A DNA stretch of 27,068 nt from NCBI GenBank assembly GCA_003645495.1, contig QNFK01000001.1, positions 1-27,068 of the forward strand, written 5' to 3'. Positions 4,298-24,763 of this stretch are shown here, one piece after another. This DNA is from Gammaproteobacteria bacterium. GTDB lineage: Bacteria; Pseudomonadota; Gammaproteobacteria; Steroidobacterales; Woeseiaceae. The notes below the pieces were generated by a model, which was not told the origin of the DNA, searched no databases, and worked only from the letters and a program-made list of their open reading frames with translations. Made by a program: the position numbers and the translations under genes. The number at the start of each line of letters is the position of its first letter. Positions within the stretch are counted from its first letter, which is position 1.

Positions 4298-6529
4298 ATG
4301 AGTAACCCAACAATTATTTACACCATTACCGACGAAGCACCTGCATTGGCTACACGTTCATTGCTGCCCATCATCGACGCGTTTACAGATGCTGCCGGCG
4401 TGCCGGTAGAAACCCGGGATATATCGCTGGCGGCCAGAATGATCGCCGCTTTTCCCGAGAATCTGGGCGCTGCACAAATACAGAATGATGCGCTGGCAGA
4501 GCTCGGCTCGCTGGTCAGTACGCCAGACGTAAATATCATCAAGCTACCGAATATCAGTGCATCCATTCCGCAACTCATCACCGCCATCAGCGAGTTACAG
4601 GCGCACGGATACGATCTGCCGGACTACCCGGAAGAGCCGCAAAATGACGCGGAAAGAGAAACTCACACGCGCTACGCCAAAGTGCTTGGCAGTGCCGTTA
4701 ACCCGGTGCTGCGTGAAGGAAATTCTGATCGCCGCGTGGCGGCCCCGGTCAAGGAATACGCCAAAAAACACCCACACTCGATGGGCCCCTGGAGCAAGGA
4801 TTCACTAACACGTGTAGCCCACATGACAGACGGCGATTTCTATTCCAGCGAACAATCTGCCGTTATCGAAAATGCAGGCAGCGTACGCATCGAATTCGTT
4901 GCTGCTGATGGAAAAGTAAGCGTACTGAAAGAAAACACGACGTTACTGGAAGGCGAGGTAATCGACGCCGCTGTAATGAGCTGCGCTGCGCTGCGTAAAT
5001 TTTTCGCTGAAGGAACAGAGAGTGCGCGGGAACAAGGCGTGCTGTTATCCCTGCATCTCAAAGCGACGATGATGAAAGTCTCGGATCCGATCATGTTTGG
5101 TCATGCCGTGACCGTCTATTACCAGGATGTATTCGCAAAACATGCAGACCTGTTCGACGAGCTGGGTGTCGAGCCGAATAACGGAATTGGAGATGTTTAC
5201 GCAAGACTTCAGGATCTGCCTGACGAGCAAAGAAAATCTGTCGAAGCTGATATTGCGGCCGTCTATGCAACGCGACCGGCACTTGCGATGGTCGACTCTG
5301 ACAAAGGCATCACCAATTTGCATGTGCCAAGCAATGTGATCATCGACGCATCCATGCCCGCCGCAATTCGCACGTCAGGGCAAATGTGGGGACCTGACGG
5401 TGAGCTTCAGGACACACTGGCGATGATACCCGATCGTTGTTATGCCGGGATCTACCAGGAAGTTATCAGCTTTTGTCGTGAACACGGCGCTTTCGATGTC
5501 ACGACAATGGGCAATGTCTGCAACGTCGGCCTGATGGCGCAGAAAGCCGAGGAATACGGCTCGCACGACAAGACGTTTGAAATGGCAGCAACAGGTTCTG
5601 TCCGGGTCATTGATGAGTCAGGCGAAACGTTACTCGAGCATGCAGTTGAGAAAGGTGATATCTGGCGCATGTGCCAGACGAAAGACCTGCCAATCCGGGA
5701 TTGGGTCAAACTCGCGGTAACCAGGGCAAGAGCGACCGGCTTGCCTGCCATTTTCTGGCTGGATTCCAAGCGTGCCCATGATGCCAATCTGATAAGTAAA
5801 GTAAATCTCTATTTGCAGGACCACGACACTGAAGAACTGAACATTCGCGTGATGTCGCCGGATGAAGCAATGCGTGTCACGCTCGCGCGCGTCAGGAACG
5901 GTGAAAATACGATCTCTGTAACTGGCAATGTTCTCCGCGACTATCTGACCGACCTGTTTCCGATCCTGGAGCTTGGCACCAGCGCAAAGATGTTGTCGAT
6001 TGTGCCTCTGCTTGCCGGCGGCGGGCTGTACGAAACCGGCGCCGGCGGCTCTGCACCAAAACATGTTCAGCAGTTTGTCAAAGAAGGTCATTTGCGCTGG
6101 GATTCGCTCGGCGAATTTCTTGCGCTCGCCGTTTCGCTGGAAGATTTTGCGATCAAAACAGAGAACAGCTCAGCACGAGTGCTGGCAGAGACACTTGATG
6201 ATGCCAATGCCAAATTCCTTGAAGCTAATAAGTCGCCGTCCCGAAAGGTCAACGAACTGGACAATCGCGGCAGTCATTTCTATCTCGCGATGTACTGGGC
6301 ACAGGCACTGGCCAAACAGACCCGGGATGAGAAGCTACAAGCGAAATTTACGGCTGTTGCAGCGGCGCTCGCTGATAACGAAAGCGAAATAGTTGCGGAG
6401 CTGAACGCAGCCCAGGGCGAGCCCGTCAATATCGGTGGTTATTACCACACGGATGATGCATTAACCGAAAAAGCCATGCGGCCCAGCGCAACGCTCAACG
6501 CGATTATCGATTCGATCAACCAACAGTGA
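4298..6529 (+). CDS. icd: Monomeric NADP-dependent isocitrate dehydrogenase (743 aa)
   Basis: [63 protein letters not shown] and [11 protein letters not shown] are characteristic of the monomeric IDH family. Confidence 0.97.
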
Positions 6530-6678
6530 GACTTGGTATCTGATCTGACAGATAGTGTAACAGTTGATCAATTCCCAATTGCCGCTCCCATCGATAGCGG
6601 TGATCGTAACTCTGATGTTTTTTTGCTCTGACCCCATTTATTGTGCAATTTCTTGCGTCGATTGACCAGAATGGGTAA

Positions 6679-8028
6679 CTAAGAACACTCACCCATATCC
6701 CGTGGCAGGTAGCGAACGAGTAGTGCGAATTCATCAATCATACCGGGATCAGCCTTTTCCGGAACGGGGATTTTCACGACCCAACCTGAACCAGGGGCGG
6801 CATCGGTCTGTTTACCATCATGACTAGTCATGTCGTTAAGACGAAAAGACAGATTGCCTGACGGTGTAACCAGTTCCATCAGGTCACCGGTCTCGAAACG
6901 GTTTTTGACATCAATACTTAGCCAGTTGTCATTTATATCCAGGACTTCGCCGACAACCTGTTGCAGGTCAGATCGCGATGCACCTCGTTCATAATTCTGA
7001 TATTCGCCGGGCGGGTGACGGCGATAGAAGCCCTCGGTGTAACCGCGATTTGAAAGACCTTCCAGTTCGTCCAGCATGCCCATATCGAACAGCCGGCCTG
7101 CTGCAGCATCCTCGATCGCACGATGGTAAACCTGGGTCGTGCGCGCGGTGTAATAGGCCGATTTGGTACGGCCCTCGATCTTCAGTGAATCGATGCCCAT
7201 GGATGCCAGCGTATGCACGTGCTGAACTGCCCGCAGGTCCCTGGAATTCATGATGTAGGTTCCGTGTTCATCTTCAAAAGCCGGCATCAGTTCCCCTGGG
7301 CGGCCCTCTTCCTCCAACAAAGCAACAGGCGGTGTTTGAGATTGAATTGCAGGCGATGTCTCTTCAGGCACTTTGATCGGCGCGATATCACCGGTACTTG
7401 TCTCTCGGGCTTCATAGGCATTGTATTTCCAACGGCAGGTATTGGTGCATGCGCCCTGGTTGGAGTCACGGTGGGCAAGGTAGCCGGATAGCAGGCAGCG
7501 ACCAGAATACGCAATACACAGGGCGCCATGAACGAAGACTTCAAGTTCTATGTCCGGACATTGCTCGCGAATCTGTGCAACCTCCTTCAGCGACAGTTCA
7601 CGCGACAATATGATCCGGCTGAGCCCTGCATTTTGCCAGAATTTTACCGCAGCGTAGTTCACGACATTGGATTGCACAGACAGGTGTATTGGTAACTGCG
7701 GCCAGCGTTCGCGCACCATCATGATCAGCCCCGGATCTGACATGATCAGGGCATCGGGACCCATGTCCACAATCGGCTCCAGGTCCCTCAGGTAGTTCTT
7801 CAACTTGTTGTTATGCGGTGCGATATTACTGGCCAGGAAAAACAGTTTTCCCGCCGCATGGGTTTCCTCGATTCCCTGCCTCAGTATCGATTCCTTGCTG
7901 AACTCATTGTTACGCACTCGCAAGCTGTAACGTGGCTGGCCCGCATATACGGCGTCGGCACCATATGCGATGGCATAGCGCATATTTTTCAGGGTGCCGG
8001 CAGGTGACAGGAGTTCAGGTTTATTCAT
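6679..8028 (-). CDS. trhP: U32-family tRNA 5-hydroxyuridine synthase TrhP (YegQ), 449 aa
   Basis: KPELLSPAG…YGADAVYAGQPRYSLRVRNNEF, HGALCIAYSGRCLLSGY, NQGACTNTCRW (Fe-S cysteines), DSLKIEGRTKS. Start placed at MNKPELL. Confidence 0.92.
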   Translation of the reverse strand: MNKPELLSPAGTLKNMRYAIAYGADAVYAGQPRYSLRVRNNEFSKESILRQGIEETHAAGKLFFLASNIAPHNNKLKNYLRDLEPIVDMGPDALIMSDPGLIMMVRERWPQLPIHLSVQSNVVNYAAVKFWQNAGLSRIILSRELSLKEVAQIREQCPDIELEVFVHGALCIAYSGRCLLSGYLAHRDSNQGACTNTCRWKYNAYEARETSTGDIAPIKVPEETSPAIQSQTPPVALLEEEGRPGELMPAFEDEHGTYIMNSRDLRAVQHVHTLASMGIDSLKIEGRTKSAYYTARTTQVYHRAIEDAAAGRLFDMGMLDELEGLSNRGYTEGFYRRHPPGEYQNYERGASRSDLQQVVGEVLDINDNWLSIDVKNRFETGDLMELVTPSGNLSFRLNDMTSHDGKQTDAAPGSGWVVKIPVPEKADPGMIDEFALLVRYLPRDMGECS

Positions 8029-8136
8029 AATTACCAATTACGCATGCGAAATTACTGCAGGGTCGCTCCTGGACATGCATGTCTTACGCGACATGAGCCT
8101 GTCTGTACACAATACCGCCCCCGCCACGCAGCATGC

Positions 8137-24631: not shown

Positions 24632-24655
24632 GGTAGCATAATTTCAATAACTTAC

Positions 24656-24670
24656 TGGGGTCCGACCCCA
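24656..24670. repeat. Palindrome TGGGGTC-C-GACCCCA, the full core of the same repeat family
   Basis: Perfect 7-bp arms around one central base, 20 bp before the icd fragment. Confidence 0.75.
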
Positions 24671-24689
24671 ATATCCGGCCAATATCCCT

Positions 24690-24763
24690 CGGATGATGAA
24701 TTGACGGAAAAAGCAATGCGGCCAAGCGAAACGCTCAACGCAATCATCGACTCAATCAACTAG
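24690..24763 (+). pseudogene. Displaced, diverged copy of the icd 3' end ([23 protein letters not shown])
   Basis: 61/71 nt identical to 6450-6520, ungapped. Of 10 differences, 8 are synonymous and 2 are Ala>Glu. It has its own TAG stop. Confidence 0.9.

Follow-up and report, generated by a model that had tools for sequence, protein, structure and literature searches.

A putatively foreign 18-kb metabolic block between two icd 3′ ends in an uncultured Woeseiaceae bacterium

The 3′ end of icd, the gene for isocitrate dehydrogenase, occurs twice on a contig of an uncultured marine-sediment Woeseiaceae bacterium (G000, a fragmented metagenome-assembled genome of 2.56 Mb in 483 contigs, 72% complete), and an 18-kb block separates icd from the GH3 glycoside hydrolase gene that follows. 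Which of the two ends is native, and how could the block have been installed? The original prediction, made from the letters of the window (the whole stretch of 27,068 nucleotides analyzed here), held that the downstream fragment is the original icd end and that the present C-terminus and the cargo arrived as one insertion. The features of the window are as follows, with the basis of each assignment.

4298–6168, plus strand: native body of icd, codons 1 to about 624 (Pfam PF03971 over the full length; monomeric isocitrate dehydrogenase)
6169–6529, plus strand: foreign tail of icd, last ~120 codons, ending ...SINQQ and TGA (identity drop versus L205)
6530–6565, plus strand: short 3′ flank, co-imported with the foreign tail (shared with L204)
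6679–8037, minus strand: U32 peptidase-family gene, TrhP/YegQ-like, predicted to act in tRNA hydroxylation (Pfam PF01136 and PF16325; database relatives named YegQ)
8137–11211, minus strand: two MttB-family methyltransferase genes, 8137–9666 and 9685–11211 (Pfam PF06253)
11224–16685, minus strand: genes for an MTHFR-like protein, RACo activase, pterin-binding methyltransferase, PF13769 protein, DUF1638 protein and B12-binding corrinoid protein (Pfam)
16754–20516, minus strand: two further MttB-family genes and a GFA (glutathione-dependent formaldehyde-activating) gene (Pfam)
20600–20653, no strand: solo left-end copy of a small MITE-like repeat (87% identity to 24377–24430)
20860–24347, plus strand: two SelA-like PLP enzyme genes and a PNP_UDP_1 phosphorylase gene (Pfam)
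24377–24669, no strand: MITE-like element with inverted ends and an extra half-end, the final foreign sequence before the remnant (repeats D4, D7 and D15)
24690–24763, plus strand: stranded native icd 3′ end, last 24 codons and TAG (L205/L209 alignments, tree)
24777–26756, minus strand: GH3 glycoside hydrolase gene, native right flank (Pfam PF00933 and PF01915)

When both copies were read directly, positions 6450–6520 recurred at 24690–24760 with 61 of 71 positions identical, ungapped and at an offset of 18,240, and the repeat pair could be extended to 78 nt at 83% (6443–6520 and 24683–24760). The second copy has its own stop codon TAG (24761–24763), which leaves a gap of 13 nt to the end of the GH3 frame at 24777. 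Codon by codon, the ten differences comprised eight synonymous and two non-synonymous changes, both GCA to GAA (Ala to Glu). The match of 61 in 71, the offset, the separate stop codon, the 13-nt gap and the eight synonymous differences out of ten had been described correctly in the original prediction. A tblastn search of icd against the whole 2.56-Mb assembly returned the fragment as the only second place (E = 7.5e-8), and the fragment matched the icd tail of the relative L205 at 93.7% over 79 nt (E = 2e-28). Judged from these alignments, the similarity of the two ends is far beyond chance.

The 743-residue monomeric enzyme encoded by icd turned out to have two histories. Nucleotide identity to L205 was 95.2% over 4367–6163, 81.8% over 6164–6449 and 83.1% over 6450–6520, with a maximum-chi2 breakpoint at 6169 (Fisher p = 4e-15), and L203, which also carries the block, has the same left breakpoint. 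The protein comparison agreed with it, the icd body showing 96.6–97.1% amino acid identity to P0128, P0129, P0132 and P0136. Separate trees of body and tail, which had been proposed as a check, gave (L209,(L205,(G000,L203))) for the body, with support 100/99/99, and in the tail tree the fragment grouped with the L205/L209 tails (98/94), the resident tails being placed outside this clade. As to which 3′ end relatives carry, the closest ones end in ...DSVN or ...DAIN, the fragment type. The closest tail to the resident one was that of L204/P0122 (88–94% at the nucleotide and 91.6% at the amino acid level), and the resident tail belongs to another lineage of the same species group; similarity to L204 continues for about 25–35 nt beyond the icd stop, after which the cargo is different in each. 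By alignment and tree, the last ~360 nt of the resident icd, from about 6169, are foreign, and the chimeric icd is an intact gene. The predicted foreign C-terminus was thus borne out, while its extent was not: it covers ~360 nt instead of ~71–80 nt. Since its true left edge lies 280 nt upstream of the predicted start, the replaced and the stranded pieces are unequal. The left breakpoint could also postdate the founding event and stem from a later homologous exchange.

At the other side of the block, the fragment and GH3 were colinear in a single HSP of 93.2% identity to L209 (24690–27068), which started exactly at 24690. Identity to L209 was uniform to the right of this position (88–98% up to the window end, with no low-identity or graded zone), and to the left identity to icd was about 44%, which indicates, at the level of sequence, a sharp and non-homologous right edge. 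The grouping with L205/L209 and the colinearity with L209 likewise point to the 74-nt piece at 24690–24763 being the native icd end, as predicted, and exclude an origin from a second icd paralog. About 34 nt immediately left of the remnant are weakly icd-like (14 of 32 positions in alignment A1); these could represent an older, decayed fragment brought in by the incoming DNA.

An earlier reading, rejected later, was obtained with G008, the nearest species-level genome and the first outgroup tried; it took the two ends for reciprocal hybrids produced by a Campbell-type crossover near 6507–6511. It was dropped because L205 and L209 (92–93% nucleotide identity) are far closer than G008 (82–84%), and with them the whole fragment is native. 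Metagenome and genome scans with the icd C-terminus returned relatives at 77% identity or less only, which served to place the group in the Woeseiaceae.

The proposed check for relatives with the empty site was positive: icd is directly convergent with and adjacent to GH3 in G008, G005, G006 and G021 and in the much closer L209, the closest relative that bridges the site (91.9% and 93.2% nucleotide identity on the two flanks). The block is therefore patchy at a fixed site, being present in G000, L203 and near-identical contigs and absent from these five. Against the empty-site arrangement of the closest relatives, the comparison shows about 18.5 kb (~6169–24689) of DNA that, by its sequence, is foreign in the G000/L203 lineage. 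As a net event, these ~18.5 kb were gained, 281 nt of native icd (the counterpart of 6169–6449, missing from the locus) were lost and 74 nt were stranded.

The gene content of the block was as the original prediction had described it. By Pfam, the cargo comprises a U32/TrhP-YegQ gene, four MttB-family genes, a B12-binding protein, RACo, a pterin-binding methyltransferase, an MTHFR-like gene, GFA, two SelA-like PLP enzymes and a PNP_UDP_1 phosphorylase, with GH3 next; an exact-product look-up of the GH3 protein gave no match. Its statement that integrase and transposase are lacking also held, since Phage_integrase (PF00589) had no match on the contig carrying the block and the 16 scanned cargo genes matched metabolic families only, with no transposase family among them; nor were excisionase, phage or conjugation genes found in the 18 kb. 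The GC content was 0.51–0.58 within the block versus 0.50–0.56 in the flanks, i.e. without the deviant base composition of a classical genomic island. The block probably confers or restores the capacity to demethylate methylated amines and so feed the folate pool.

Searches for the cargo genes elsewhere gave different nearest relatives for different parts. The U32 gene was not found in the 22 congeners searched and occurred at 80–89% amino acid identity in 22 of 138 genomes of the sister genus g24; its 3′ flank showed no homology to the sister-genus contexts outside the gene. An MttB-MttB-U32 trio with its order kept was found in the metagenome contig L032 (86–88% amino acid identity), in a context that is not icd. 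The corrinoid cluster (11224–16685) and two MttB genes were kept in order at other loci in G022 and G005 (55–87%), RACo orthologues occurred in 12 of the 22 congeners, and the PLP tandem lay at other loci in 13 of the 22 (65–72%). MITE-like ends bracket 20600–24669, so that the last 4 kb of the block are bounded by small repeats; their core GGGGTCGGACCAGC is also present as inverted pairs on two other contigs of G000 (C9 and C80), and a similar MITE-like end was seen at the corresponding position in L204. Judged by homology, the cargo is not alien, as congeners hold the corrinoid methyl-transfer cluster and the PLP-enzyme pair at other loci and the sister genus holds U32, and it appears as a mosaic of a sister-genus-type U32-MttB-MttB trio, this methyl-transfer cluster and this enzyme pair. 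Of the predicted single insertion, the foreign nature of the block stood; arrival in a single step is less firm, in view of this mosaic and the repeat-bounded last 4 kb.

Among the mechanisms that the original prediction had offered, we favour homology-anchored recombination at icd; trans-mobilisation is kept as part of a rival discussed below. Specifically, we consider a one-sided event from a related donor, with the far end joined illegitimately, to be moderately likely. The recipient would have taken up linear DNA from a donor that already carried the cargo downstream of its own icd, RecA-type homologous pairing within icd would have anchored this DNA, with a crossover near 6169, and its far end would have been joined illegitimately inside the recipient icd tail. 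Such a process, homology-facilitated illegitimate recombination (HFIR), would require no integrase. The locus has what this process leaves behind, namely one boundary in homologous sequence (the breakpoint at ~6169 inside icd), a sharp, non-homologous other boundary (the L209 alignment starts at 24690) and a deletion of 281 nt of recipient DNA between these two points. The donor is taken to be related because the foreign tail is of the same species group, the GC content is flat and the cargo clusters have counterparts in congeners and the sister genus; a donor with icd followed by this cargo was not found among the genomes and contigs searched.

The alternatives concern the reality of the join, the direction of change and the route of entry. 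Because the source is a fragmented assembly of 483 contigs, two organisms could have been fused at similar icd sequences by the assembler or in binning; we regard such a chimera as practically negligible, given that the left junction was found in contigs L036 and L037 and the right junction in L200 (a 49.5-kb contig), L201 and L202, which come from four other samples and show 98.6–99.9% identity, and that Logan contigs of run X1 span both junctions and those of X3 the right one at a flat depth of about 10x. In addition, the longest identical run between the two copies is 12 nt, which is too short for assembler collapse. That the block is ancestral and was lost from the "empty" relatives is a very improbable reading, even though the direct repeats would be able to mediate a deletion and the GC content is the same as in the flanks. 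A deletion between the two icd-tail copies would leave the equivalent of 6169–6449 in the G000 type, and L205 and L209 contradict this, being only ~81% identical there versus ~95% and ~91% in the body; moreover, icd lies beside GH3 or DUF4159 in at least 13 congeners, and the tree identifies the fragment, not the resident tail, as the vertical copy.

The remaining alternatives accept the gain of the block. It is possible, if rather doubtful, that it was assembled in place by several insertions, for instance one each for the U32-MttB trio, the corrinoid cluster and the PLP/PNP block between the repeats, of which a single one swapped the tail. The three modules with different nearest relatives at separate loci in congeners, the MITE-like ends around 20600–24669 and the unequal third-codon divergence between G000 and L203 (U32 3.3%, MttB 6.5–8.8%, flanks 10–15%) would suit such a build-up; yet no intermediate with a partial block at the icd site was found, all six island-bearing contigs have one and the same gene order wherever they overlap, and the mosaic could equally have arisen in the donor. 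We think it unlikely that an element with a spare icd tail entered by e14-type, site-specific integration near 6450/24690, with the integrase lost or acting in trans as in a CIME, and that a separate gene conversion or homologous exchange extended the tract upstream to ~6169. At e14/icd, too, the gene end is duplicated, the element supplying the functional copy and the original being stranded (PMC6379469), and both features are seen here, in the replacement tail from ~6169 and the original end at the far junction (24690–24763). Both copies open with the same 9 nt (CGGATGATG), readable as an att core; integrase-free att-flanked elements are a recognised class, the CIMEs (PMC5704250, PMC6323972); and a 439-residue tyrosine-recombinase-like frame lies on G000 contig C32, while in an assembly that is only 72% complete a trans-acting integrase could have gone unnoticed. 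On the other hand, the 18 kb hold no integrase or phage functions of their own, and among the scanned genes downstream of icd in relatives, whose genomes are incomplete, no recombinase family was found save an IS200-like gene in L204. An identical att core and equal replaced and stranded extents are lacking (~361 versus 74 nt; longest run 12 nt), a second event is required to explain a foreign tract that begins 280 nt upstream of the supposed core, and a remnant of ~147 nt instead of 74 nt in G014 (see below) means that there is no common att core. No excision or empty-site joints were seen in four public runs, although their assembled contigs do not suffice to establish absence. The unequal lengths, the homologous left edge, the sharp non-homologous right edge and the missing integrase fit HFIR-like recombination better than e14-type integration.

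The original prediction had further raised icd as a possible hotspot for metabolic islands, and this found modest support. In G014, a different block is followed by the ~147-nt stranded icd end, and the blocks found downstream of icd include the methyl-transfer island (G000/L203), an autotransporter-adhesin pair (G014/G017) and an oxidase gene (L204); L204 has no convincing stranded icd end ahead of its GH3 remnant. Double icd hits in genus g24 were rejected as further cases, since they reflect either a second full-length paralog or a break in the contig or reading frame, as was G154, where the contig breaks within icd. After these removals, G000 and G014 were the sole cases in the family-wide search. 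It is possible, though less likely than not, that the 3′ end of monomeric icd is a recurrent landing pad in the genus, at which unrelated blocks would be installed without a recombinase by tail swap and stranding; if true, this would exemplify a general way for accessory genes to enter by gene-end displacement, independently of integrases.

The locus makes both the recipient state and the product readable, with empty-site relatives, a mapped crossover in a housekeeping gene and a sharp far joint. It suggests that large (18-kb) metabolic gene sets may move between related uncultured sediment bacteria without mobile-element machinery. For Woeseiaceae ecology, the population's only copy of a predicted corrinoid-dependent, methylamine/betaine-type demethylation cluster would sit in a transferable block. 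That a conserved enzyme gene tolerates a chimeric tail matters for icd as a marker, and "duplicated gene ends" should be taken with caution as proof of integrases.

Several known systems share parts of this picture. In E. coli, the cryptic prophage e14, and likewise phage 21, lies in the 3′ end of icd and leaves the icd′/icdC pseudogene (Hill et al. 1989, as described in PMC6379469). The block resembles e14 in its insertion at the 3′ end of a gene for isocitrate dehydrogenase, with an incoming, working replacement end and with the original end left behind past the insertion as a short, diverged direct repeat. It differs in that its icd is monomeric (PF03971) and unrelated in size to the 416-residue E. 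coli enzyme, in its lack of integrase, excisionase and phage genes, in the unequal replaced and stranded pieces without a long identical core and in its purely metabolic cargo. CIMEs, att-flanked integrase-free remnants of ICEs and IMEs (PMC5704250; ICEberg 2.0, PMC6323972), are likewise direct-repeat-bracketed blocks at a gene 3′ end without recombination or transfer genes; unlike them, the repeats here are 86% alike with no att-like core, the foreign tract reaches beyond the left repeat, and no cognate integrase-bearing element was found at the icd site in the genomes searched. In Rhs, CdiA and T6SS effector loci, displacement of 3′ tips leaves orphan tips and immunity genes (PMC5361080 and references therein). 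There too, a conserved 5′ part anchors the exchange, a new 3′ part enters with downstream genes and the old 3′ part survives in a displaced, downstream position, but the target at icd is a housekeeping enzyme that needs a functionally equivalent tail, not a polymorphic toxin, and the cargo is metabolic and much longer. HFIR itself (de Vries and Wackernagel 2002; Prudhomme et al. 2002; Meier and Wackernagel 2003, as cited in PMC5361080) has been described in laboratory transformation, where the inserts are short, whereas the present block measures 18 kb in an uncultured lineage. As in HFIR, one end lies in homology and the other does not, the recipient DNA between them is deleted and mobility genes are unneeded. 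The mechanism is already known, and the block at icd would be a natural example of integrase-free gene gain.

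The source MAG is fragmented (483 contigs, 72% complete) and the window covers its contig C1 in full, with the gene order assigned via Pfam as follows.

Before icd: a GGDEF/EAL sensor, then a pilin-like gene, then tRNA-Met
4298-6529: icd, monomeric isocitrate dehydrogenase, 743 aa
After icd, minus strand: U32/TrhP-YegQ-like gene
After U32, minus strand: two MttB-family genes
Minus strand: MTHFR-like, RACo, pterin-binding methyltransferase, PF13769 protein, DUF1638 and B12-binding protein
Minus strand: two further MttB genes and GFA
Plus strand: two SelA-like PLP enzymes and PNP_UDP_1 phosphorylase
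Right end of the window, minus strand: GH3 and DUF4159

The duplicated icd end described in the original prediction was recovered as two copies at an offset of 18,240, identical at 61 of 71 positions with 8 of the 10 differences synonymous, and the second copy closes with a TAG of its own, leaving 13 nt to the GH3 end. The pair could be extended to 78 nt at 83% identity, the longest common run being 12 nt, and no further icd match was found in the G000 assembly. The best named relatives of this icd were Woeseiaceae MAGs. Upstream of icd, the last 28 nt of tRNA-Met (4061-4088) are repeated at 4191-4218 (27/28 nt); in L203, L206-208 and G008 alignments skip from 4088 to 4191, so that the ~102 nt in between are apparently missing, while the alignment of L205 is continuous across the region (4009-4218).

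Adjacent and convergent icd and GH3, the arrangement to be checked in relatives, were found in four congeners (G008, G005, G006 and G021). A protein search yielded a compact cluster of more closely related icd sequences, and the contigs carrying them provided the decisive comparisons. L209 (GCA_003359195.1) carries icd, a 13-nt spacer and then GH3; it is 91.9% identical to the window upstream and, on the right side, matches in a single alignment from 24690 to the window end (93.2%). Over 102-6520, L205 and the window share 92.7% identity; the icd end of L205 and the fragment (24690-24763) share 93.7%. A reciprocal-hybrid model of both icd-end copies, built on G008 (82-84% identity only), was contradicted by the closer L205 and L209 and was dropped. 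Across the genus, icd is followed by DUF4159 in nine species, by GH3 in four and by other genes elsewhere; GH3 is missing from the L206-208 lineage.

Sliding windows and segment counts of G000 against L205 gave identities of 95.2%, 81.8% and 83.1% for 4367-6163, 6164-6449 and 6450-6520, respectively, with the best breakpoint at 6169 (chi2 75; Fisher p=4e-15), and the island-bearing sister L203 had the same break. Protein identity to the 741-aa icd group was 96.6-97.1% for the icd body (aa 1-624) and fell to 85-87% for the tail, which was closest to P0122, the L204-type tail (91.6%). In maximum-likelihood trees, the bodies of G000 and L203 were nested inside L205/L209 (support 99-100). In the tail partition, the 74-nt fragment grouped with L205 and L209 (98/94), while the resident tails fell outside. 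From 24690 rightward, the match to L209 stayed even (88-98% identity) with no foreign stretch; to the left of 24690, similarity to icd was ~44%, near noise. The identity drop at 6169, the trees and the sharp edge at 24690 thus define a foreign tract of ~6169-24689. The claim that the original icd end is stranded and the present C-terminus foreign therefore stood, with its extent corrected, since the foreign tract begins at ~6169, ahead of 6450. The native icd lost 281 nt, and its last 24 codons and stop were stranded.

A chimeric assembly was dismissed, because the left junction recurs in two other metagenome contigs (L036 and L037) and the right junction in three (L200, 49.5 kb, L201 and L202), all from four other samples and 98.6-99.9% identical to the window; Logan contigs span both junctions in run X1 and the right junction in X3, and depth is flat at about 10x. 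A deletion between repeats in the relatives was also rejected, as it cannot account for their 6169-6449 differing from G000. L202 represents an island population variant in which 45 bp are deleted from the 3' portion of the second PLP gene (23242-23286) and 43 bp are duplicated within a MITE-like element (24574-24616). One low-depth Logan contig (run X4), possibly derived from a different strain or organism, joins 24639 in the MITE-like region to 24802 in the GH3 interior, bypassing both the stranded icd end and the final codons of GH3.

The cargo is not alien. Along the block, GC content stays level. U32 was not found among 22 congeners and occurs at 80-89% identity in 22 of 138 genomes of a sister genus; the MttB-MttB-U32 trio recurs in L032 (86-88%). 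The B12-to-MttB core cluster and the PLP pair lie at other loci in congeners (55-87% aa and 65-72%, respectively), and a second RACo copy was absent from the 72% complete G000 assembly. Since cargo clusters lie elsewhere in relatives and MITE-like repeat ends, also found elsewhere in the G000 genome, flank 20600-24669, the block is a mosaic. Of the predicted single insertion, insertion at icd was upheld, while assembly of the mosaic could have occurred in the donor or in place.

The MITE-like element (~230-250 bp, inverted ends, core GGGGTCGGACCAGC) is present at 24377-24669 and, as a solo end in the GFA/PLP intergenic region, at 20600-20653, with further G000 copies at C9:8097-8342 and C80:825-1056. 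The sequence at 24377-24669, immediately left of the stranded icd end, comprises one full copy and an additional half-end; together with the solo end it encloses the PLP/PNP sub-block. A similar end occurs at the corresponding place in L204. Between icd and U32, L203 has ~412 bp (L203:6119-6530; window ~6591-6600) that are missing in G000. Third-codon divergence between G000 and L203 (window 6679-11211) was 3.3% for U32 and 6.5-8.8% for the MttB genes, versus 10-15% in the flanks and icd tail. Lineages bearing the island may therefore have exchanged island DNA at a later time, or constraint on these genes may be stronger.

As for icd as a hotspot, a second stranded end and varied downstream genes lent the idea modest support; a family-wide search gave no further stranded ends. 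In G014 an isolated icd end (~147 nt) lies directly behind an autotransporter + PKD/cadherin pair; the same 5.4-kb pair stands between icd and DUF4159 in G017, with no remnant. Downstream of the G014 stranded end (L210, G014:C9, 3701-9813) are two amine-oxidase-like flavoproteins, a GcvT-like aminomethyltransferase and an SSF transporter, another methylated-amine-type cluster at the icd site. L204 shares the icd tail type of G000 and ~25-35 nt of 3' flank, beyond which come a gene for a BBE-type oxidase, a remnant of the GH3 end and an IS200-like gene. In this oxidase-cargo lineage (L204:4445-5357), GH3 is reduced to its last ~115 nt, adjoining a tandem GATGTTTGGGGTCAGA motif and the 234-aa IS200-like (Y1_Tnp) gene, which may encode a REP-associated transposase.

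How the block arrived was weighed between two routes. The less likely one is an integrative element that has decayed or is served in trans, with gene conversion afterwards: as the original prediction stated, neither the block nor the contig has an integrase, and the scanned genes matched no transposase family. An e14-type event would be expected to leave an identical core, against a longest common run of 12 nt, and equal replaced and stranded lengths, against ~361 and 74 nt; the differing remnants of G014 (~147 nt) and G000 (74 nt) also argue against a fixed att core. The block probably originated instead by one-sided, homology-anchored recombination into icd. Its left edge is homologous, its right edge is sharp and non-homologous, and the recipient DNA in between is lost, a combination that forms the signature of such an event. 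Tip displacement at T6SS and Rhs loci has been explained by this process (PMC5361080). The stranded end is real and cleanly resolved, and its kind is already known, the closest cases being e14, the cryptic prophage in the E. coli icd 3' end (PMC6379469), homology-facilitated illegitimate recombination (HFIR) and the att-flanked, integrase-free cis-mobilizable elements (CIMEs).
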